Shown here piece after piece: positions 28,129 through 39,569 of a stretch of 64,000 bases of DNA (position 1 is the first letter of the stretch; each line of letters begins with the position of its first letter). The DNA is from Betaproteobacteria bacterium. Its GTDB lineage: Bacteria > Bacillota > SHA-98 > UBA4971. The stretch is taken from assembly GCA_050260395.1 (NCBI GenBank), contig JBLNCC010000083.1, positions 17,592-81,591 of the forward strand, written 5' to 3'. The notes under the pieces are model-generated. The model made no database searches. It was not told where the DNA came from and worked only from the letters and a program-made list of their open reading frames with translations. The position numbers and the translations under genes were made by a program.

Positions 28129-28197
28129 CGCTCACACCCCCACATTCCATATGATGCCTGGACCGGGACAAGCCGCGCTACGAGACCGCCTCGCGCG

Positions 28198-28368
28198 CCC
28201 CTCCCCGTCCCTCGCGCCGTTCCGATAGGACGCCCGCGGCCCTAAGTGAGGGTACGTTAGTCCCTACCCCATTTCCAGTAGGTGCCGGGTTGCCGGTGTT
28301 GCATTCGGGGACGGCGCCCCAAGCGGGGCGCGCTTCGCCAAAATCCGGCCCGTCGGGCAAGTGGACTG
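28198..28368. repeat. Copy 1 of a conserved intergenic element (core GTGCCGGGTTGCCGGTGTTGCATTCGGGGACGGCGCCCCAAGCGGGGCG)
   Basis: The 28282-28330 core matches 53760-53808 at 44 of 49 positions in the same orientation. Flanking blocks (TAAGTGAGGGTACGTTAGTCC, AATCCGG.CCGT..GGC.AGTG) are also shared. Confidence 0.8.
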
Positions 28369-30053: not shown

Positions 30054-30854
30054 TCACTCGCTTGCAAGGGCTTCTATAGCCTCGATCGCGGTCATGCCCG
30101 CCATAGCACAGGCCATGAGTTTCTCGCGAATCCACTCGCGGTCGCGCGTGCGCACGACCTCCGCAAGGGTCTCGCCCAGACGAGCCTGAGTGCTTTCGTC
30201 GAGCTCGTCGAAAACCGGTGCGCTGCTCGCATCGTGGTCGACCGGTCCGTCCGCTGCCTGAGCGAGGTCGGGAAAGTAACCCTGCTGCACAAGCTCGGCC
30301 ATGACGCGGAGCGTGGCCGCCAGCTTCTCCTTATCGACCCCTGCTCTCGTCGCCTGGTACGCCACGCGAGCAGCGAATCCCTCACTCAGTCCGAGCGACC
30401 GCGCGTACCCAGCCATATCCGGCCCGTCAGAAGAATCCTCATGATCGTTATTATTGTTATTGTCATTGTTGTTGTCATTGTTATTGATATCGGTAGTGTC
30501 ATTGTTAGAATCATCGTAGCCAGCGCCGCTGCCCGCGCCATCCCCAGAATCGTTCTGGCCGTCGTCATGCCCGTTCCCAGCGCCGTTGCCATCATCGTGA
30601 CCATCGTCATCATGGCCGCCGTCGTAATTGCCGTCCTGACCGCCGTTGCCCGCGCCGTCCCCGCCGCCCTGGTCGTCATCGTCGTCGCCAGGCCCGCCCG
30701 GGCCCGTGGAACCGCCGTCGGCCCTGAGCGCCGGGCTGCCCGTGCCCGGAGCCCCCACAGAGCCGCTCGCCCATGCAGGAAGCGCAAAGGCAAGCACGAG
30801 GACGAAGATCCCTACCATCACAGCCTTCCACCATTTCCAGACCTGCCGCTTCAT
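30054..30854 (-). CDS. Secreted hyper-acidic D/G/N-rich protein with helical C-terminal domain
   Basis: ORF trimmed to ATG 30854 (GAAGGGGGT 9 nt upstream). Signal peptide: MKRQVWKWWKAVMVGIFVLVLAFALPAWA. A ~120 aa Asp/Gly/Asn low-complexity tract includes NNNDNNNDNNNNND. I recognised no family. Confidence 0.65.
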   Translation of the reverse strand: MKRQVWKWWKAVMVGIFVLVLAFALPAWASGSVGAPGTGSPALRADGGSTGPGGPGDDDDDQGGGDGAGNGGQDGNYDGGHDDDGHDDGNGAGNGHDDGQNDSGDGAGSGAGYDDSNNDTTDINNNDNNNDNNNNNDHEDSSDGPDMAGYARSLGLSEGFAARVAYQATRAGVDKEKLAATLRVMAELVQQGYFPDLAQAADGPVDHDASSAPVFDELDESTQARLGETLAEVVRTRDREWIREKLMACAMAGMTAIEAIEALASE

Positions 30855-31070
30855 GGTGCATGTACCCCCTTCTGTTGTAGTCGCGCAGTCTGGCCTACAG
30901 AGTTCCGCGCGTCTTCTGCTCCCATTATCAGGCCAGGGCGAACACGCGCACGTTGCCGCGGTCACAGGGGGAGTGTGTTTTTCATCACGTTCTGAGAAGC
31001 AGTGACGACCCGCACAGAGCACGGGGCACGGAGAACGGAGCGGAAAACGCGGACGGCGGCTGAAGGCACA

Positions 31071-31766
31071 TCAGGTGACGAGGTCGCGCAGGGCATCCTC
31101 GTTCTGGATGACGAGGCGCCTGTCGTCCTCGGCCGCGACAAGCCGGCTGTCGTGAAGCTCAGCGAGCACCCTTGTGACCGTCTCTCTGGTCACGCCGGCG
31201 TAGTTTGCAAGCTCCTGGTGGGTCAGCCTGAGCTTGAGACGCACGCCCTGGGCCACCCTCTCCCCATGCGCGCGCGCAAGCTGTAGCAGGGCCTCGATGA
31301 TCCTGCCGCGCGCGTCGCGAAACGCGAGGCGCTCCAGATCCTCGTTGGTCCTGCGCAGGCGCTCCGCAAGGGCGAGCGCAATGTCGGCTGCAAGCCCAGG
31401 GGTGCTTTTCATGAGGGCGAGGAATGGATCGCGATCGATGATAAGCACCTCGCAGTCGGAAAGAGCCTGGGCGGCGGCAGACCTGGGCGCCCCATCGAAG
31501 ATGCTCATCTCGCCGAAAAAGTCCCCGGCCTCCAGGATGGCCAGAGTCTTCTCCCGCCCGTCCTCGGAGATCTTGTGGATCTTCACCGCACCTGCGGTGA
31601 TGATAAGGAGAGACCCGCCAGGATCACCCTCAAAGAATATTGGGCTGCCGCGTTCGTAGCAGCGCCTGCGGGCGATCCCCGAAAGCCTTGCAAGGCTGGC
31701 CTGGTCCAGGCGGCTGAAGAGAGGCACGGTCCCGAGAATCTCAATCGGCTCAAGGCGTTGCCACAA
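31071..31766 (-). CDS. Crp/Fnr-family cyclic-nucleotide-binding transcriptional regulator
   Basis: cNMP-binding domain: GDFFGEMSIFDGAPRSAAAQA. C-terminal HTH: THQELANYAGVTRETVTRVLAEL. TTG 31766 has GGAGGTG 7 nt upstream. Confidence 0.88.
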   Translation of the reverse strand: MWQRLEPIEILGTVPLFSRLDQASLARLSGIARRRCYERGSPIFFEGDPGGSLLIITAGAVKIHKISEDGREKTLAILEAGDFFGEMSIFDGAPRSAAAQALSDCEVLIIDRDPFLALMKSTPGLAADIALALAERLRRTNEDLERLAFRDARGRIIEALLQLARAHGERVAQGVRLKLRLTHQELANYAGVTRETVTRVLAELHDSRLVAAEDDRRLVIQNEDALRDLVT

Positions 31767-31781
31767 CTTACGCCACCTCCG

Positions 31782-32669
31782 TTACCTGCCGATCACAGCC
31801 GACCACGGACCTCTGCAGCAGTCGTCACCGTCGTTGTCACCGTCCGCGCCATCATCTTCGAGGTTGTAGCCGAGCTTAGCGTCGCCGGGCGGCCCTCCGA
31901 CAGGGCCGCCGTCGTGGTCGGGAGGGTTTCCGGCGCCCGAGTCCTGTTTACTGCCTTTCTCATCGTCGTCGCCACGGTCGTTCTCATCCCGGCCATCGTT
32001 ATCGCCGTTCGCAAACCGGCCTTGCTCCTCCGCCCATGCGCGCTTCTCGTCGTCGTCCATGGGCTCTGGTTTCGCGGGGGCGTGGCCTGGTTTCACACGT
32101 GTGGCATACCCTTGAGGCACGAGTACAGCCTTTCCGGCCCCGACGACCTTGACGACCCCTGATGCGACGGAAACAGTGGTTGCGAGGTCGTCGCTCACCC
32201 ACACGCTGAAGTGCGTCCCGCGCACACCCACTACCGCGCTGGGGGTCTCGACGGTAAAGCCCGCGGCACCTGGCGCAGCAGGTTTCACCTTTGCCCACAA
32301 CCTCCCGATGAACAGCCGTAAGTACAGCAGGGAGTCGAAACAGACCTCACACCCAGGTCCGAGCGTAATAGAGCCACCATCGGCAAGACCGAGGGCTGCC
32401 CAGGAATCGGGGTCGCACCTTATGCGGTCTCCACGGTATATGAGGGAGCCTACCCCGACTTCGATCCACTCTCCGGACCTTGCAGGAAGAAGCATGCATC
32501 TTCCCTCGGCTTTCACCACGGTAGCAACTGCCGCCGTGTCAACAGCCTGGGCACGGGCGCCACCCCACAGCCCGCGCCCCGGCCACACGCAAAGCGCCGC
32601 AAGCACGAGGAAAAGGAGAAACGCCCTCGTTCGTCGTCCTGCGTGCAAACCTCTGCCGGGTTGCGCCAT
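31782..32669 (-). CDS. FecR-domain protein with signal/anchor and acidic D/G-rich C-terminal tail
   Basis: N-terminal hydrophobic segment: AFLLFLVLAALCVW. FecR-type core: TVETPSAVVGVRGTHFSV. C-terminal tail: GDNDGRDENDRGDDDEKG...EDDGADGDNDGDD. Confidence 0.75.
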   Translation of the reverse strand: MAQPGRGLHAGRRTRAFLLFLVLAALCVWPGRGLWGGARAQAVDTAAVATVVKAEGRCMLLPARSGEWIEVGVGSLIYRGDRIRCDPDSWAALGLADGGSITLGPGCEVCFDSLLYLRLFIGRLWAKVKPAAPGAAGFTVETPSAVVGVRGTHFSVWVSDDLATTVSVASGVVKVVGAGKAVLVPQGYATRVKPGHAPAKPEPMDDDEKRAWAEEQGRFANGDNDGRDENDRGDDDEKGSKQDSGAGNPPDHDGGPVGGPPGDAKLGYNLEDDGADGDNDGDDCCRGPWSAVIGR

Positions 32670-32912
32670 GCTCTTTCATCACCTCTAAGTGAGAAATAAC
32701 AAGTCTTGCCGACTTGCCAGATCTTCTACGCTCGCGCGTAAGCACCTGCAACCCTGGGACGGTCGGCAGCCTGGAACCCCTACGGGCTCCTCATCATCAG
32801 GCACCCGCGGCCCGTGCATGAGCATCGGAGTGTGAGCATCGGGTGCGGATGGCGGATGGCGAACGGGCAAGGGATCCCCACTTCTACATTGATGCGGCCA
32901 GCACAGGCTTTC

Positions 32913-32928
32913 TGTGATCGCTATCACA
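32913..32928. promoter_or_regulatory. Perfect CRP/FNR-type palindrome TGTGA-N6-TCACA
   Basis: TGTGATCGCTATCACA sits in the 290 nt gap between the cyclase stop (32959) and the FecR-domain gene start (32669). Confidence 0.6.
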
Positions 32929-32958
32929 GATCCCGCTCCAAATCGCCCCCAGCGGCCA

Positions 32959-34827
32959 TCACAAGAGTTCGTAAACCTCCACACGCGCCGATCTGCCTCT
33001 TATCTCAACGGACCCGACCCGGCGCGCATCCACTGCGCCGCATATGGCCTGGTACGTTCGTCCACACACAAGGACCTGGCCCGGCTGTGCCATGCCTTCG
33101 AGCCTCGCAGCGAGGTTCGCGGCGTCGCCGACGGCGGTGTAATCCATCCGGGCAAGCGTCCCGATATTGCCCACCACAGCTTCGCCCGAGGCTACCCCCA
33201 CGCCCACGCTGAGCCTGACATCACTGCCAGGGGCCGCGTCGGCAGGCCCGGTCGCCTCGACCGTTCGTGAGAATGCTTTGCTGATGGCAATCGCAGCCCT
33301 TGCCGCCCGAAGGGCGTGGTCCTCCTGGGGAATCGGAGCCCCAAAGACAGCCATGACTCCGTCCCCGGTGAACTTATCGAGCATGCCGCCTTCGCTGAAA
33401 ATAGCTTCCACCATCTTGGAAAGATGGGTGTTGAGAACGTCCACCACACGCTCGGGAGCCTCGTTCTCTGCAAACGACGTAAAGCCACGGATGTCGGCGA
33501 ACATGACGGTTACATCGAGCCGCCTTCCCCCGAGGGCCACATTGCTGGGGTCCCTAAGGATTTCGTCCACCACTGCGGGCGACAGGTATCGGCCAAGCGT
33601 CGCCCTGATCCTCGTCCTCTCGGCTTCGGCGAGTGCGTACGCGACCACAAGGTGACGCCCCAGCACCAGGACGAGGATCGCCATGACAGGCATGGGGTCG
33701 AACCAGACGTTCTTTCTAGCGAACAAGAGGAAGCTAACCCAGGCGACGCAAATGGCGATGGCGAGCGCCACCCCGGCTGCGACTCGCGGCCGGAGTCTCT
33801 GGAAGGCCACCACAAGCACCAGCGAAAGCGCAACAAAAGGCACCCCCGCAAACGGCTTAAGAGGCTCGCGCACAACGAGGCCGTCAAGGAGCGCCTGCAC
33901 AGTATTAGCGTGTATTTCCACGCCCGGAATCGGGTTCCCTGCCGTCGCAAGGGGCGTGAAGTAGAAGTCGTGGAGGCCTTGCGCGGTTACGCCGACAAGA
34001 ACGATCTTTCCCTCGAACTCGCCAGGGGCGAACTCGCCACGAAGCACCTTACAATAAGAGAGCGTCTCGAACTTCGGGCCCCCGGGGGAGCCGGACGAGT
34101 ACCGGATGAGGACGCGGCCCGTTGCATCCATCGGCACCCTCAACGCGCCCAGCCGGAGCCCGCCCTCGTCCAGCGAAACACCTGTGGGTGGAAGCCCCAG
34201 GGCGATCCTGGCAACCTCAACGTCCAGCGAGTAGCGCGGCGTTCCCCCGTCGATCACGACGGGAACGTGGCGGCGCAGGACCCCGTCCACGTCTGGCACC
34301 GCGATCACGCTCCCGGTGACAGCCGCGCGCTCGAGCGCTGGATACGGCGGTTTCCGGGCACCGGCCACATAGAAGACGTGGGATCCGCGCGGAAGCACCT
34401 TGTTCTCCGCGTAAAAGGGGAAAACGACCAGACCCGAAGCTGCAGCGGCCCTCGCCAGGGCATCATCGGCCGCGGGATCGGCGGATGCATCAGGCATCAT
34501 TACGTCGAACTCTATGGCCTTTGCCTTCTCGCGGGTAAGAATCTCGACGAGCCTAGCGTGGTAGGACCTCGGCCACGGCCATGGCCCGAGCTGTGCAAGG
34601 GAGTCATCGTCGATGGCCACGATGACGATCCGCGGCGTCGGGCGCGGCCCGGCTGCCATCCTGTGGCATAGGTCATACGCGGCAAGTCCAGCGCGCTCGC
34701 CCGCGCCGGTGCTATCCAGGCAGATGACGGCTACGGCTATGATGATGCCAGCCGCTATCGCTTTGACCTCGCGAGGCCTGTCGCGGGGCTCGCTACGCGC
34801 CTCGCCGGCTGCAAACGTGCGTCTCAT
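32959..34827 (-). CDS. CHASE2-sensor class III adenylate/guanylate cyclase
   Basis: CHASE2 features: IVAIDDDSLAQLGPWPWPRSYHARL. Several TM segments follow. Cyclase domain: VTVMFADIRGFTSF...DKFTGDGVMAVFGAP...GDAANLAARLEG. Confidence 0.9.
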   Translation of the reverse strand: MRRTFAAGEARSEPRDRPREVKAIAAGIIIAVAVICLDSTGAGERAGLAAYDLCHRMAAGPRPTPRIVIVAIDDDSLAQLGPWPWPRSYHARLVEILTREKAKAIEFDVMMPDASADPAADDALARAAAASGLVVFPFYAENKVLPRGSHVFYVAGARKPPYPALERAAVTGSVIAVPDVDGVLRRHVPVVIDGGTPRYSLDVEVARIALGLPPTGVSLDEGGLRLGALRVPMDATGRVLIRYSSGSPGGPKFETLSYCKVLRGEFAPGEFEGKIVLVGVTAQGLHDFYFTPLATAGNPIPGVEIHANTVQALLDGLVVREPLKPFAGVPFVALSLVLVVAFQRLRPRVAAGVALAIAICVAWVSFLLFARKNVWFDPMPVMAILVLVLGRHLVVAYALAEAERTRIRATLGRYLSPAVVDEILRDPSNVALGGRRLDVTVMFADIRGFTSFAENEAPERVVDVLNTHLSKMVEAIFSEGGMLDKFTGDGVMAVFGAPIPQEDHALRAARAAIAISKAFSRTVEATGPADAAPGSDVRLSVGVGVASGEAVVGNIGTLARMDYTAVGDAANLAARLEGMAQPGQVLVCGRTYQAICGAVDARRVGSVEIRGRSARVEVYELL

Positions 34828-34896: not shown

Positions 34897-35223
34897 TCAG
34901 ACGCGAATGAAGCTTTCCACGGCGGCGACAAACACTATGGCGCCCCCCGCCTGCACCTCCACCGGAAGCCCACCGAACGGCATTTGACCCGTCCCAGGCG
35001 TGAATTGAGGGGCAGCCTCGATTCGCCTCGGGCAGCATTTCGCGATGACGTTGATAACCTCCTGGACCCTGTGGTCTTCCACTCCTATCAGGAACGTGGT
35101 GTTGCCTTCGCGCAGGAATCCCCCTGTCGACGCCAGCCGAGTCGCGCCTATGTGCCTTTCCGCAAAGGCGTCAAGCAGAGCTGAGGCATCGCTGTCCTTC
35201 ACGATGGCGAATACCAGCTTCAT
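34897..35223 (-). CDS. darA: Cyclic-di-AMP receptor DarA/PstA (PII-like, DUF970)
   Basis: ORF trimmed to ATG 35223 (GGAGGG 9 nt upstream). MKLVFAIVKDSDASALLDAF...ASTGGFLREGNTTFLIGVED is collinear with B. subtilis YaaQ/DarA. 108 aa. Confidence 0.85.
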   Translation of the reverse strand: MKLVFAIVKDSDASALLDAFAERHIGATRLASTGGFLREGNTTFLIGVEDHRVQEVINVIAKCCPRRIEAAPQFTPGTGQMPFGGLPVEVQAGGAIVFVAAVESFIRV

Positions 35224-35228
35224 CCCCC

Positions 35229-36635
35229 TCATCCCTCCTTTGAGATGGCCGCGCGCCTGCGGCGGGCCCATTGTACGGGCGAGATCATGCGAACCGGCCG
35301 GTCCATGATTCTGGAAAGAAGCAGCAGCGATACCAGGCGGACACACGTGCCCGCGTAGAAGGTGAGCTGAATCCCGAACGTCCTGTAGAACACGTCGCCG
35401 AGGAAGGGGGCAACGAAGGTCGCAACGTTTATCATCATATTGAACACCGCGACCGCGCTTGCGCTCCTGCCGGGTTTCGCGTACGCAAGAGCCAGGTTGA
35501 ACACGGCAAGGTTGATGCCGCCCATGCAGAACCCCGATATAAGCTGCATCCCGTAAAGGTACGACACCGACCGCGAAAGCATATAGGCGGCTGGGAAGAC
35601 CGCCATCCCCGCCATGCAGATGAGCAGGACGATCCTATTGCCTCGGCGCGACACCACTCTTCCCCAGTACACTGAGCCCACGACCGTGGCGATCCCAGCG
35701 AGCGTTGCAAACGCGCCGATCGTGGCGTTGGAGAGGGACAGGACCTCGACGTGGTAGATAGGCCACATCGCGGCAGTGAACCCGAACCCGAACCAAAGCA
35801 TGAAGCAGCTCAGTGAGAAGAATTTGAACTTGTGGCCGTATTCCTCGTCCGTGAGAAGGTCCCTCACCCTGGATATGAGGCCTTGGCTCGCTTCCTGCCC
35901 TGCCTTCTGAGGCGGGACCACCTCCCGCATCCTCGACATAAAGGCAATCCCAAGACCGCCAAAGCACGCGGCGATGATGAAGAGGAGCAAGTAGTTGGCC
36001 GGGAAGCCCACACTATCCAAAAGGTACCCGGCCGCGAGCGTCCCCAGGACGCTCGTCAGCCCGATGCACATGTTCCTGAGCCCGAACACCTCGCCCCGCC
36101 GGTTCTCGGGAAACATGTCGCCCACCATGGCGGTCCAGGCCACACCCGAGATGGCGCCAGGCACGGACATAAGGGTGACCACGGCCACGAGCACCGCGGC
36201 CTTGCCCCCCTGGAGCGCGGGCAGAAACGGGATGAACGCCAGGGGAACGTAAAGTAGCCTGTGTAGACCCGCCCACAGAAGAACCACTGGAAGACGAGCC
36301 CTGCGTCTTTCAACCAAGCTCGCGGCAGGAAGGAAGACCAGCGCGTTGGCCAGCGCCGGAGCGGCTGTGAGCAGCGCCACAAGGAGGCTCGACGCCCTCA
36401 GGGCGATCGCGTACACCCCGAGGAAAGGGTTGACGAGACCGAAGGCAGTGTTGGTCGCCATTCCCTCAAGGGTCGTGTATATGAAATTGTGGCGCACCGT
36501 GCTTGTCGGCCTCGCTCGACGGCCGAGCGTCCGGCGGCGCAAGCCGAGGCGGACCGGGCGCAAACGCCCGTCCGCCTCCTGCCGGCCGCGTCTCGCGGCA
36601 AGCCCGCTGAACTTGAGGCCTTTATCAACGGACAT
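35229..36635 (-). CDS. MFS transporter
   Basis: About 12 predicted TM segments. MFS loop motif: MVGDMFPENRRGEVFGL. ATG 36635 lies 14 nt after the upstream stop. Confidence 0.8.
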   Translation of the reverse strand: MSVDKGLKFSGLAARRGRQEADGRLRPVRLGLRRRTLGRRARPTSTVRHNFIYTTLEGMATNTAFGLVNPFLGVYAIALRASSLLVALLTAAPALANALVFLPAASLVERRRARLPVVLLWAGLHRLLYVPLAFIPFLPALQGGKAAVLVAVVTLMSVPGAISGVAWTAMVGDMFPENRRGEVFGLRNMCIGLTSVLGTLAAGYLLDSVGFPANYLLLFIIAACFGGLGIAFMSRMREVVPPQKAGQEASQGLISRVRDLLTDEEYGHKFKFFSLSCFMLWFGFGFTAAMWPIYHVEVLSLSNATIGAFATLAGIATVVGSVYWGRVVSRRGNRIVLLICMAGMAVFPAAYMLSRSVSYLYGMQLISGFCMGGINLAVFNLALAYAKPGRSASAVAVFNMMINVATFVAPFLGDVFYRTFGIQLTFYAGTCVRLVSLLLLSRIMDRPVRMISPVQWARRRRAAISKEG

Positions 36636-36649
36636 GACGACTTACACCC

Positions 36650-37729
36650 TCAACCAGCAGATTTCCTTCTTCCATCGCTCCGGCGCGTCCCGCCGTGCAG
36701 GTAACTCGCAGCAACCGCCACGGCCCCGACCAGGAGCGTCAGGTAATAGGTAAGGCCTCTCCAAAGAAGCACGAACACGCCGAGGAGCCTGAACGGCACT
36801 ATCGACCCGAAGAGCACGGCCAGGCTTGCTTCGGCAGCTCCGCTCGACCCCGGCGTCGGGGCGTATGCCGCGGCAAGATAGAATATGCCCGCGATGCCCA
36901 TGGTTTGGGCGAAAGGCGGGTCCATGCCGAGGCCACGAAGCAGGAGCACCGGGATGAAAAACGCCATCGCCCAGCTGAGAAGGCTCAGCGCTGAGATGGC
37001 CACGAGCGCGGGCCTACGCTCGCGGACGAACGTCCTGAAAGCAGCGCGAAAGCCGGCAACCTCCGCCTTCAACTTCTCAAGGAACGAATCCGCCGCATGG
37101 GCTGGGATGATCCGCCTGACACGTCTGTTGCGGAGGACACGCCCCAGGACCGTCCCGACGGATTCCGGATAAAGGGCAAAGAACCCCATGAGCGTCAGGA
37201 CCAGGACATAGAGAACCAATCCGACAAAGAGCGCTGCCTCAAGCCCTCCAGGAAGGTCCCAGGATCTGCGCCCCACGATATACCACACCGGAAACACAAG
37301 CGCCAGGGCAAGCCTCGCGAGGGAGCTCACTATCGTTTTGACCGCGACAACCGCGGTGGATTCCCCTGCCCCGATGCCCTGCCGGTGGAGCAGGTACACC
37401 TGGAGCGGCTCCCCTCCCGTATCAAACGGCGTGACACACGCAACGAACGCCCCGGCAAGAGCTATTCGGAGCGCGCTCATGAACCCGAGTCTGCCCCCGA
37501 GCGCCCTCACGAGCATTTCTATGCGCGCGGCCTCGAGGATCCACCCGACCGCAACCAGCGATCCTGCGACACCGAGAGACACGGGATCCACGCGGAAGAG
37601 GCTCGACCATCCCTCGCGGCCTCCTGTGAGACGCATGATGATGAACATGGCGAACGCGCTGGCAAGGACCGCGCCAGCCGCCCCGCGGACGAGGCTTTTC
37701 GTGCTTCTGGGTGTTCTCGGCTCAGCCAC
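36650..37729 (-). CDS. Flippase-like / lysyl-PG-synthase TM-region family membrane protein (UPF0104)
   Basis: Polytopic. VTPFDTGGEPLQVYLL and YAPTPGSSGAAE match the LPG_synthase_TM family pattern. GTG 37729 lies 13 nt after the radical-SAM stop. Confidence 0.7.
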   Translation of the reverse strand: MAEPRTPRSTKSLVRGAAGAVLASAFAMFIIMRLTGGREGWSSLFRVDPVSLGVAGSLVAVGWILEAARIEMLVRALGGRLGFMSALRIALAGAFVACVTPFDTGGEPLQVYLLHRQGIGAGESTAVVAVKTIVSSLARLALALVFPVWYIVGRRSWDLPGGLEAALFVGLVLYVLVLTLMGFFALYPESVGTVLGRVLRNRRVRRIIPAHAADSFLEKLKAEVAGFRAAFRTFVRERRPALVAISALSLLSWAMAFFIPVLLLRGLGMDPPFAQTMGIAGIFYLAAAYAPTPGSSGAAEASLAVLFGSIVPFRLLGVFVLLWRGLTYYLTLLVGAVAVAASYLHGGTRRSDGRRKSAG

Positions 37730-37742
37730 GTCGTTCCGCCCT

Positions 37743-39050
37743 TCATGCACGTAGAGTCGAACAAGAGATCTCTTCACGCGATGGCGTGAAGCTGCCCACC
37801 CGGAGCCCCGGACACCTGGTGCGGAGTTCTTCGACGAAGGCGTCGATTCCGAGCACACGCCCCTTGGGGCCTGGGAGCGCCGCCGTCAGCACATCGGGGT
37901 CGATGTTCAGGTTGCGAAGCTGTACCATGTCTATGTGTGCTCTTTCAACCAGAGCACACAAGGCGTCCAGCTCCTCCTCGCGGTCGGTTAGGCCGGGAAA
38001 CACGAGGAGGTTCAAAGACACAAAAACCCCTCTCTCCTTCGCGATGGCGAGCGACCTTCGGACGTCGTCCAGCCCGTACCCGCGCGGGCGGTGGTACGCG
38101 TTGTAGATCTCGTGCCTCGCGCTGATGATGCTCACCCTCATGCTGTCGAGACCCGCCGCGCAGACTTTCTCGACGGCGTCCACAAGGCCCGCGTTAGTAT
38201 TCGCGTTTATGAGGCCTCTGTCCTGCACCTCCGCCCTCATCCGCGTGATGGACCGAGCGATGAGGTCAGCCTGAATCAAGGGCTCGCCTTCACATCCCTG
38301 CCCGAAGCTTACGATGGCGTGGGGAGCCTCACGAAGGTGCGGCAAGCCTATCTCGACTATCTCATCAAGCGTGGGAACGAAGTCGATGCGGCTCTGCGGA
38401 GAAGGGCAGCACTCCGCGGGCTGGAGCGAAATACACCCTATGCACGACGCCGTACACGCTGGCGATACCGGGATGCCCGCCTCCCATCGGCGATAAAACA
38501 CGTTTTGCGCTGTGAAGCATCGGTATTCCGTGGAACATTTCGCGAGCTGACGGAGGATCCTATTAGCTGGATGCCCCTTCAACATCGCCTCTATGAGCGA
38601 CGGAAGCTCGGGCGTGTTATAGCTGGCAGGGTCCCACCTCGAAGGCTCGTCCGTCCTGAGCGCCGCGACGTAGGGCTTTCCTTGTTTCATTCCGACCGCG
38701 GTGTATCCGTACAGAGGCAGGGCACGGATTTCACGGCGCCGATCGACCACGTACGCCGGAAGGAGAGTCCGCGTGAACCCGGCCGGAAGGAGCGCCCCCA
38801 CCGCCCACCCCGGCGTCTCCGCTGCGCACCGCTCATCGGTCTGCAGCCATAGGGCGAATGTCTCGCCGTCTTCCGGTCTCATGCCGACCGCCTGGCGCCC
38901 GGGAAGCATGGCAAGGGTGGAGCCGCGCGGAAGGGGGATCATGTCGCCCTCGCGGATATCCCATATTTCGTCCCAGGAGCGACCAAGAGCCGCCAGACTT
39001 CTCTCCTCAAACATGACGCCGTGGTCGTCCACGTACAAAGCCTGAAACAT
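37743..39050 (-). CDS. Radical SAM protein with ~200 aa N-terminal extension
   Basis: Cluster motif CTASCIGC (CX3CX2C), SAM-binding GQGCEGEPL, and NLLVFPGLTD...VQLRNLNIDP. ATG 39050 preferred over ATG 39155. Confidence 0.8.
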   Translation of the reverse strand: MFQALYVDDHGVMFEERSLAALGRSWDEIWDIREGDMIPLPRGSTLAMLPGRQAVGMRPEDGETFALWLQTDERCAAETPGWAVGALLPAGFTRTLLPAYVVDRRREIRALPLYGYTAVGMKQGKPYVAALRTDEPSRWDPASYNTPELPSLIEAMLKGHPANRILRQLAKCSTEYRCFTAQNVFYRRWEAGIPVSPACTASCIGCISLQPAECCPSPQSRIDFVPTLDEIVEIGLPHLREAPHAIVSFGQGCEGEPLIQADLIARSITRMRAEVQDRGLINANTNAGLVDAVEKVCAAGLDSMRVSIISARHEIYNAYHRPRGYGLDDVRRSLAIAKERGVFVSLNLLVFPGLTDREEELDALCALVERAHIDMVQLRNLNIDPDVLTAALPGPKGRVLGIDAFVEELRTRCPGLRVGSFTPSREEISCSTLRA

Positions 39051-39569
39051 GAACGCACGTCCCCAGTCTCTGCCCAAGCAGCCGAGCTGCACTCTCGTCG
39101 CACACGACGGCCACTGGGCCAATCTCGCGGGACAATTATACCCTCCAGGAACCATCCTCGCAAGAAGCTCGGGTCAATACGTCTGAATCGTGTCTATTCG
39201 CTATATGAGTGCGAATATGGGGCATTCACGCTTGCCAGGAATTCTCCGGAAGGAATTCGAGATGTATCATCGAATACTGTCGGGAGGTGAGGCAGCTGAC
39301 GCTATGCCGCACCGCATCGCGTGTTGATTGTGCGTTGCGAGAAAAGTCGCGGGGCGCGGAGCTTGGTGGGTGGTCAACCGGTTGTTTGTGGGTCGTTGCC
39401 CCAAGCGTCTCGGCCTCTAGACTGTTACTGGACGCCGGAAAGGAGTGATAGCCTACTGGTTGCGAGATAGCAGTGCGCTTCTACGTGCAGCTTCCACAAG
39501 ACCGCATTGCACGAGGCAGCTAATGAGGCCTTCGAGTCAAGCGGACGAGAAACCAAGGAGGTATATTGA

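Follow-up and report, generated by a model that had tools for sequence, protein, structure and literature searches.

A predicted CHASE2 cyclase–FecR–Crp circuit with conserved Crp-type promoter boxes in an uncultured Bacillota lineage

In Sinorhizobium meliloti, clr (SMc02175), the CHASE2 cyclase gene cyaD1 (SMc02176), smc02177, and smc02178 share a locus, and Clr in complex with cyclic AMP (cAMP) activates smc02177, which encodes a non-cytoplasmic FecR-domain protein, as well as smc02178, which encodes a periplasmic protein of unknown function and is controlled via a Clr box (PMC5498481). NsrA, an outer-membrane protein, relays the signal to the cyclases there (PMC13001267). A CHASE2 adenylate cyclase also clusters with an adjacent FecR gene in Campylobacterota (PMC9239204), and the BiofilmReg operon of Burkholderia combines a CHASE2 histidine kinase with a LysM-FecR protein (PMC5192318). 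cAMP–Crp signaling is poorly documented in Bacillota, the model members of which appear to lack it (PMC5217690). Here, we analyze a locus at positions 30,054–34,827 of a 64,000-nt stretch of contig JBLNCC010000083.1 from an uncultured Bacillota lineage (this stretch is called the window below), where genes for a CHASE2 cyclase, a FecR-domain protein, a Crp-family regulator, and an acidic exported protein follow one another and a palindrome of the TGTGA-N6-TCACA type lies between the cyclase and fecR genes. The closest known system is the CyaD1/CyaD2/CyaK–Clr–smc02177–smc02178 pathway of S. meliloti (PMC5498481; PMC13001267), and comparison with the locus description in the first of these papers shows the same kinds of components clustered here, namely cyclase, regulator, FecR-domain protein, exported target, and boxes. 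We consider it probable from the sequence evidence that the locus encodes a closed unit in which an envelope signal would be relayed through cAMP to Crp, with positive autoregulation and a small regulon of exported proteins.

The locus comprises four minus-strand open reading frames (ORFs) with the coordinates given in an earlier note on this DNA; Pfam assigns three of them and leaves the fourth without a family (Table 1), and the gene set that the note had proposed (CHASE2 cyclase, FecR-domain protein, Crp, and acidic exported protein) agrees with these assignments. The note had also called the module self-contained. In the window genome (2.62-Mb assembly, 85% complete), the cyclase is indeed the sole class III cyclase, PF00211 giving a single match per genome in seven of seven genomes, and Crp is the sole strong PF13545 match and the only canonical Crp/Fnr-family regulator. 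For comparison we used nine family relatives (eight congeners and one sister genus), which together with the window genome provided 10 loci, and a distant set of three genomes (G018, G020, and G021) from two other families of the same class. The cyclase–fecR–crp order, the co-occurrence of which the earlier note had left to be checked, is present in nine of nine family relatives and in all three distant genomes, where the cyclases are ~39% and the Crps ~48% identical to those of the window; in a fourth distant genome, cyclase and crp are adjacent, with no fecR. The longer order orf402–MFS–DarA–cyclase–box–fecR–crp–(acidic)–ogt–ctsR–mcsA–mcsB is kept in the eight congeners and the sister genus. 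We also looked within 6 kb of the genes for the 80 best relatives of Crp from other phyla; in that comparison, the cassette was confined to this family.

Table 1. Genes and predicted regulatory elements of the locus, in window coordinates.
Feature	Position	Strand	Basis
Exported orphan protein, 266 aa	30054..30854	-	Signal peptide, D/G/N tract, and helical C-terminal domain
-10 hexamer GATAAT of acidic-gene promoter, 21 nt after proximal box	30924..30929	-	Conserved A, A, T
Proximal degenerate box, TGTGACCGCGGCAACG on minus strand, predicted center ~-41.5	30951..30966	.	Left half conserved
Upstream box of acidic-gene promoter, CGTGATGAAAAACACA on minus strand, predicted center ~-64.5	30974..30989	.	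GTGA..A.CAC invariant in 10 genomes, three families
Crp, 231 aa, TTG start, own GGAGGTG	31071..31766	-	Pfam, closest structures, and residues
Exported or membrane-anchored FecR-domain protein, 295 aa	31782..32669	-	Pfam FecR 1.3e-10, residues 81-174
Weak -10-like hexamer CAATGT, exactly 21 nt downstream of fecR box	32886..32891	-	Conservation and spacing
Crp-type box of fecR-crp promoter, TGTGATCGCTATCACA = TGTGATAGCGATCACA on minus strand, predicted center ~-41.5	32913..32928	.	Perfect TGTGA-N6-TCACA
CHASE2 receptor-type class III adenylate cyclase, 622 aa	32959..34827	-	Pfam, residues, and hydropathy

The palindrome is located 30 nt past the end of the cyclase gene and precedes the fecR ATG by 244 nt, essentially where the earlier note had placed it, and is the only perfect TGTGA-N6-TCACA sequence in the 64-kb window, compared with 0.01 expected. 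Several lines of evidence support a role for this box in transcription of fecR and crp. First, GTGA-N6-TCAC is invariant at 10 of 10 orthologous loci, as the earlier note had anticipated for a functional site, and starts 0–70 nt after the cyclase stop, and the rest of the cyclase–fecR spacer is mostly unalignable (mean column identity of 44% in the 10-genome alignment after the cyclase stop); GAAA following the box is nearly invariant, and TGGGG near the predicted transcript start is conserved. Second, no insertions or deletions occur between box and hexamer, and in 10 of 10 genomes the −10-like hexamer has A in its second and T in its sixth position, the two that matter most in a −10 element. 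The 21-nt spacer would therefore place the center of the box near −41.5, and this spacing to a conserved xAnnnT sequence, which recurs at two other promoters described below, implies a predicted class II position. E. coli CRP bound at −41.5 activates class II promoters, where it replaces the −35 element. The fecR promoter was missed by a consensus promoter scan because it has no −35 element. Third, the 2.62-Mb assembly contains six TGTGA-N6-TCACA sites, compared with ~1.1 expected, four of which are intergenic according to a codon-bias gene model that leaves ~14% of the genome non-coding, a result of the genome scan that the earlier note had suggested. The transcript is predicted to start at ~32879, which would give it a leader of ~210 nt, and searches of this leader revealed no Rfam match and no other copies elsewhere in the genome. 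A terminator scan found no intrinsic terminator after the cyclase or after crp. That Crp would activate rather than repress this promoter, and where its transcripts would start, are predictions from the arrangement of these elements. As a separate observation, two to four copies of GTGATGTSCT, which are repeated half-sites, follow the cyclase stop immediately in G005 (L024) and G001 (L025).

The product of crp has the features expected of a protein that would read such a box. Pfam matches cNMP_binding (PF00027, 5e-28, 97.4 bits) and HTH_Crp_2 (PF13545, 5.4e-18, 65.2 bits), and the best solved relatives are the Mycobacterium tuberculosis CRP Rv3676, Corynebacterium GlxR, and Thermus CRP (2e-37 to 1e-35), with an alignment to Rv3676 that spans the full length (E = 2e-37). 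In the cAMP pocket, which includes Glu86, Arg95, and Ser96 and has the Gly-Glu...Arg-Ser/Thr pattern of CRP, the segments FFGEMS and PRSA align with FGELS and PRTS of Rv3676, and the recognition helix TRETVTR, with Arg194, Glu195, and Arg199, aligns with SRETVNK. In the recognition helix RETVGR of E. coli CRP, the Arg180–Glu181–Arg185 triad reads TGTGA, and TRETVTR fits the same Arg-Glu-x3-Arg pattern. From these alignments, we infer that the ligand of Crp is cAMP and that Crp is the protein that binds the boxes.

The cyclase has the architecture of a membrane receptor. Its CHASE2 domain (PF05226, residues 30–332, 4.8e-56, 190.6 bits) is flanked by transmembrane (TM) segments and followed by a class III catalytic domain (PF00211 Guanylate_cyc, residues 438–619, 3.6e-25, 89 bits), with hydrophobic or TM segments at residues 18–43, 322–345, 345–374, and 377–402 by hydropathy. 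The closest solved relatives of the catalytic domain are Synechocystis Cya2, its adenylate-converted form, and Pseudomonas aeruginosa CyaB. Alignment to Cya2/IlaC and CyaB identified the metal-binding residues Asp445 and Asp489, the adenine-specifying pair Lys485/Asp562, and Arg560, Asn571, and Arg575, and the catalytic set of two metal-binding aspartates, a Lys/Asp pair, and transition-state Asn/Arg residues (Asn571/Arg575) is therefore present. The residue corresponding to Lys485 is Glu in the guanylate cyclase Cya2 (2w01) and Lys in the adenylate-converted form (6fht), and Cya2 has Glu/Lys where the present cyclase has Lys485/Asp562. These residues are consistent with cAMP as the likely product.

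The FecR-domain protein has a hydrophobic N-terminal segment (residues 16–36) and a D/G-rich, polyanionic tail (residues 205–295, net charge −17), features that place it outside the cytoplasm, like the CHASE2 domain. We think that it probably assists CHASE2 sensing, in a putative sensory role. Its stop codon and the TTG start of crp are separated by 15 nt, as the earlier note had reported, and the junction carries GGAGGTG.

The gene for the acidic exported protein proved to be organized differently from what had been proposed. In the earlier note, it was the plain tail of the fecR–crp transcript, and the 289-nt spacer between cyclase and fecR was the only sizeable gap in the locus. The ORF noted at 30054–31022 (minus strand) begins at a GTG at 31022, and we favor the ATG at 30854 (MKRQVWKWW...) as the likelier start because it is preceded by GGGGG and shared by the orthologues. 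With this start, a 216-nt gap (30855–31070) separates crp from the acidic-protein gene, and this gap holds a deeply conserved promoter, alignable as a whole across three families, with two degenerate Crp-type boxes. Center-to-center spacing of the tandem boxes is 23 nt in every genome. The left half of the proximal box, TGTGA, is kept in all 10 genomes of this three-family alignment, and its right half differs between this genus (CAACG) and the distant families (CCACA). The −10 hexamer reads TATAAT in G018 and G020 and TAATAT in G021, with invariant A, A, and T columns; the distant genomes have the arrangement TGTGATGAAAAACACA-N7-TGTGACCGGGCCCACA, 21 nt, TATAAT, in which the GTGA, CAC, TGTGA, and −10 columns are invariant. 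Transcription is predicted to start at ~30917. The proposal of a cyclase–cAMP–Crp loop driving both fecR–crp and the acidic-protein gene is supported, since all of the comparative tests fit it, and has to be amended in that the acidic-protein gene has a promoter of its own. Two further features of this region were seen in relatives. In G004 (L021) and G007 (L020), an insertion of ~200 nt, only 26 nt of which match a miniature inverted-repeat transposable element (MITE) of the window, lies between the acidic-gene promoter and the ORF and leaves the boxes and the −10 element untouched. In G018 (L030, minus strand, ~1440–1520), six tandem half-box units of ~12 nt, (C/A)TGATG(C/T)(A/G)A(A/G)A(C/T)C, are found directly upstream of the tandem Crp boxes.

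The acidic protein itself has one N-terminal hydrophobic segment, which ends in ALPAWA/SGS, followed by a region (residues 31–150) composed of 27% G, 23% D, and 15% N with a net charge of −28. It matches no Pfam family, and its relatives form only three other clusters among 5.8 billion proteins. AlphaFold models the C-terminal domain of ~120 aa as all helical with six helices (predicted local distance difference test score 84.6), and a search of the PDB with this model gave no significant fold match, the best hits being designed helical repeats (E 0.05, TM-score 0.43). The gene is present in six of nine relatives and missing in G002, G003, and G008, and is therefore dispensable. In the three genomes that do not have it (L023, L026, and L027, respectively), ogt follows crp almost directly. 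In G003, a remnant of the upstream box, GTGACGAAGAACACA (L026 7374–7388), overlaps the crp stop, which points to a deletion of the proximal box, the −10 element, and the acidic-protein gene. In the distant genomes, the gene after crp encodes a protein of analogous build, in which a hydrophobic segment at the N-terminus is followed by a low-complexity tract rich in Gly and by a C-terminal domain of helices. Homology between the two proteins was considered and set aside, the only common element being an 18-residue VRTR..LRE.L motif (hhalign E 0.0016, probability 16%); we treat the acidic and Gly-rich proteins as positional analogues of unproven homology. Neither family showed similarity to the GWGEI family described next.

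The same promoter design is found a third time outside the window, on genome contig C27, where a perfect box (C27:35082), a 21-nt spacer, and the hexamer TAACCT precede the gene for a secreted 284-aa protein that contains GWGEI repeats. In 10 of 10 family genomes, this promoter has the box, the 21-nt spacing, and a hexamer of the form TAnnnT. In G002 (L136), a palindromic MITE, 84% identical over 133 nt to a copy at 28142–28274 of the window, is inserted in the leader just downstream of the promoter, with box and −10 element intact. The inner positions of the boxes, Y and R, define the motif class TGTGAY-N4-RTCACA, of which the nine relatives contain 23 sites, compared with two for a reversed control. 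Eight of the nine relatives have one to four sites each, and G003, the boxes of which carry one mismatch, has none. With few exceptions, the 23 sites belong to three sets of orthologous positions, at the fecR and GWGEI promoters and in the intergenic region between genes for NDH-2 and ApbE. A composite scan for a larger regulon, requiring a box with at most two mismatches, a spacer of 20–22 nt, and xAnnnT in an intergenic, correctly oriented setting, returned only the fecR and GWGEI promoters as strong matches. The NDH-2 site, TGTGATAGTCGTCACA (C15:5896–5911), is almost letter-perfect in G001, G002, G004, G005, G006, G007, and G008. It lies upstream of a gene for an NDH-2-like oxidoreductase–DoxX fusion, divergent from a gene for a 410-aa exported protein (ApbE-like by eye), and falls inside a conserved leader, ~85 nt downstream of the extended −10 promoter TGGTATAGT, at a position that does not correspond to class II geometry and from which Crp or the redox regulator Rex could repress.

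A second class of sites, TGTGAA-N5-GCACA or TGTGAA...TCACA, occurs on genome contigs outside the window, at C1:10553, C15:8414, C35:19853, C35:19898, C41:44725, and C102:18530, upstream of NuoE-like (2Fe-2S thioredoxin-like) and NuoF-like genes; on C35, a box of this class overlaps the −35 position of a TAGAAT promoter. The TGTGAA sites linked to NuoE and NuoF look like the true Rex set of this lineage. All three box-linked exported proteins have long, charged low-complexity regions, the lengths of which are highly variable among close relatives. These regions are rich in D, G, and N in the FecR tail (window 31782–32055) and the acidic protein (30400–30765), and consist of G/S/K or D/K/N at the C-termini of the GWGEI family (L114–L126).

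The cell envelope in which these exported proteins would act is probably that of a diderm. An Omp85/BamA-family protein (~186 bits) is encoded at C89:22329–23243 and also in G001, G002, G008, G018, G020, and G021, and none was found in monoderm control genomes. The uncultured lineage is therefore probably diderm, and "secreted" may thus mean periplasmic or outer-membrane associated. No gene for an NsrA-like outer-membrane barrel or a tetratricopeptide-repeat (TPR) protein was found in the conserved cluster from orf402 to mcsB (the rest of the genome was not searched).

We propose the following mechanism. An extracytoplasmic cue would be sensed by the membrane cyclase via its CHASE2 domain, with probable assistance from the exported FecR-domain protein, and the cyclase would respond by making cAMP. 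The cAMP–Crp complex would then bind TGTGAY-N4-RTCACA in the place of the −35 element, near −41.5, and recruit RNA polymerase to promoters that are otherwise weak. At the promoter just past the cyclase stop, which would drive fecR and crp, Crp would amplify both itself and the putative co-sensor in a positive feedback loop. At the tandem-box promoter, with its boxes 23 nt apart, cAMP–Crp would activate the gene for the polyanionic exported protein, and the GWGEI gene would be activated from the third promoter. Basal expression of fecR and crp could come from read-through of the cyclase gene because no terminator intervenes, and basal read-through from crp into the acidic-protein gene is possible for the same reason.

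Some observations weigh against this proposal. The fecR −10 hexamer CAATGT is weak and was recognized by its conservation and spacing alone, the predicted leader of ~210 nt is long and unconserved, and in this genus the proximal box of the acidic-gene promoter has three mismatches. No box was found between cyclase and fecR in the more distant families, and autoregulation through the fecR box would therefore be confined to a single family. In addition, the motif's third conserved locus does not have activator geometry and falls in the leader of an NDH-2-type gene, a kind of gene classically controlled by Rex, and Rex (PF06971), a repressor that reads a similar palindrome, is encoded in eight of eight congeners. 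The main rival explanation is accordingly that the palindrome is a Rex operator, which would tie fecR–crp to the NADH/NAD+ ratio and not to cAMP. The Rex consensus is TTGTGAA-N4-TTCACAA, NDH-2 genes are among its classical targets, and several TGTGA-type sites of the window genome lie upstream of NuoE/NuoF-like and NDH-2-like genes, as is typical of Rex; the NDH-2 leader site also shares the Y6/R11 form and is conserved in seven genomes, and the 85%-complete assembly of the window genome may have missed rex. However, the fecR and GWGEI boxes always have T or C at position 6 and A or G at position 11 and never the A/T of a Rex box, and all of the sites beside NuoE/F genes read TGTGAA. The geometry is that of an activator site, with the box substituting for the −35 element and always 21 nt from a weak −10, and Rex is known only as a repressor. 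Moreover, boxes and crp stay together across three families, boxes are present in G009 and in the window genome with no detectable rex, and no box lies upstream of rex itself in eight genomes. For these reasons we regard control of fecR–crp by Rex as quite unlikely.

The direction of regulation by Crp could also be the opposite of that proposed, with Crp bound at the fecR box as a repressor or roadblock to read-through from the cyclase gene, which would result in negative autoregulation. Any read-through must cross the box, which lies 0–70 nt past the cyclase stop with no intrinsic terminator, and the NDH-2 site of the same class occupies a repressor-like position ~85 nt downstream of a strong extended −10 promoter. 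Negative autoregulation of crp has a precedent in E. coli, where it operates mainly via a divergent transcript. A roadblock, however, needs neither an invariant 21-nt spacing to xAnnnT nor a conserved TGGGG at the predicted start, and identical spacing is seen at two other promoters, where the −10 elements are good and there is no gene upstream from which to read through; we therefore judge repression at this box to be unlikely. A nucleic-acid hairpin, serving as a 3′-end stabilizer or terminator of the cyclase mRNA and not as a protein site, would suit the location of the palindrome in the cyclase 3′ region, its potential for an 8-bp stem with a 4-nt loop, and the joint change of positions 6 and 11 from T-A to C-G in several genomes. 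Nevertheless, the core of the stem is AT-rich and no U-tract follows, neither the terminator scan nor Rfam yields a match, and the folding energy is ordinary (z = −1.5, with 19 of 200 shuffles folding as well). The GTGA/TCAC core is invariant and never covaries, G006 breaks two of seven pairs, and it is the sequence motif itself that recurs at unrelated promoters with fixed spacing, all of which makes a hairpin function highly improbable. Finally, about one palindrome with 10 specified bases is expected in a 2.6-Mb genome of this composition, and a single site could thus arise by chance and have no function. This explanation is effectively refuted by conservation of the site at the same place in 10 of 10 genomes within otherwise unalignable DNA, and is also at odds with the excess of genomic sites (six versus 1.1 expected, four of six intergenic with ~14% non-coding DNA) and with the count of 23 motif sites versus two for the control in relatives.

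A closed, positively autoregulated cAMP–Crp unit thus remains the explanation we prefer. A more speculative extension, which we find possible but doubtful, is that the entire cAMP system of this lineage amounts to one closed envelope-sensing switch, with one CHASE2 cyclase, one Crp, and no barrel partner, whose only activated outputs would be the FecR co-sensor, the polyanionic orphan, and the GWGEI protein. Such a switch might act as a bistable regulator of surface or periplasm composition (e.g. cation binding or matrix) and not as a metabolic global regulator, and, if it exists, would be a minimal system for learning what CHASE2–FecR pairs sense.

Upstream of the cyclase, an operon of radical SAM, LPG_synthase_TM, major facilitator superfamily (MFS), and DarA (cyclic di-AMP receptor) genes occupies 34897–39155 of the window and ends 69 nt before the cyclase gene. 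Adjacency of darA and the cyclase gene is constant across the family, with a gap of 69 to ~500 nt, and the genes for a cyclic di-AMP receptor and for the sole cAMP cyclase are therefore fixed neighbors.

The lineage offers what we predict to be a complete minimal circuit that runs on a single cyclase, a single Crp, and three or four conserved sites. In the field at large, neither what CHASE2 domains bind nor what their recurrent FecR partners do is known yet, and the S. meliloti pathway is entangled with 28 other cyclases. Reconstitution in E. coli would be cleaner with a circuit of this small size, whose promoter architecture is clear and whose feedback is predicted to be positive. For annotation, the analysis provides a lineage-specific Crp motif (TGTGAY-N4-RTCACA, 21 nt, −10) and a regulatory context for two orphan exported proteins.

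Among known systems, E. coli class II CRP promoters provide one comparison. The predicted fecR promoter resembles E. coli class II CRP promoters in its TGTGA-N6-TCACA box and in a predicted center near −41.5, in place of the −35 element. E. coli CRP, Rv3676, and GlxR, however, are global regulators with tens to hundreds of sites, whereas three or four conserved sites per genome are found here, and autoregulation of E. coli crp is mainly negative, whereas we propose positive control. The Campylobacterota and Burkholderia loci and the present one have in common a CHASE2 sensor paired with an adjacent exported FecR-domain protein, which supports a functional partnership of CHASE2 and FecR that would be independent of the output domain. 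The Campylobacterota clusters differ in that they have no adjacent Crp and include phosphodiesterase and TPR-protein genes, and the Burkholderia operon signals via a histidine kinase and a response regulator and not via cAMP. As in S. meliloti, a gene for a CHASE2 receptor adenylate cyclase lies beside that for a Crp-family cAMP regulator, and a neighboring gene encodes a non-cytoplasmic FecR-domain protein and is an established Clr target there and a predicted Crp target here. By locus description, both systems also have a nearby gene for an exported protein of unknown function with a palindromic Crp-type box. Several features set the two apart. S. meliloti belongs to the Alphaproteobacteria and the present lineage to the Bacillota; all four genes are co-directional here, and crp is inside the operon that it is predicted to activate, and we know of no such autoregulation for clr. 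The box here is the CRP-like TGTGA-N6-TCACA, whereas the Clr box is TGTT-N8-AACA. S. meliloti has 28 cyclases besides CyaD1, CyaD2, and CyaK and a broad Clr regulon, in contrast to the one cyclase, one Crp, and handful of sites found here, and an NsrA-like barrel, which relays the signal there, is not encoded in the present cluster. The earlier note had remarked that the D/G/N-rich secreted protein is not a known member of the cAMP regulon; exported proteins of unknown function are already Clr targets in S. meliloti (PMC5498481). The design of the module is therefore known from that organism, and what differs here is the phylum, the placement of crp in the operon predicted to be activated, the CRP-type box, a cluster with no barrel gene, and the very small size of the system.

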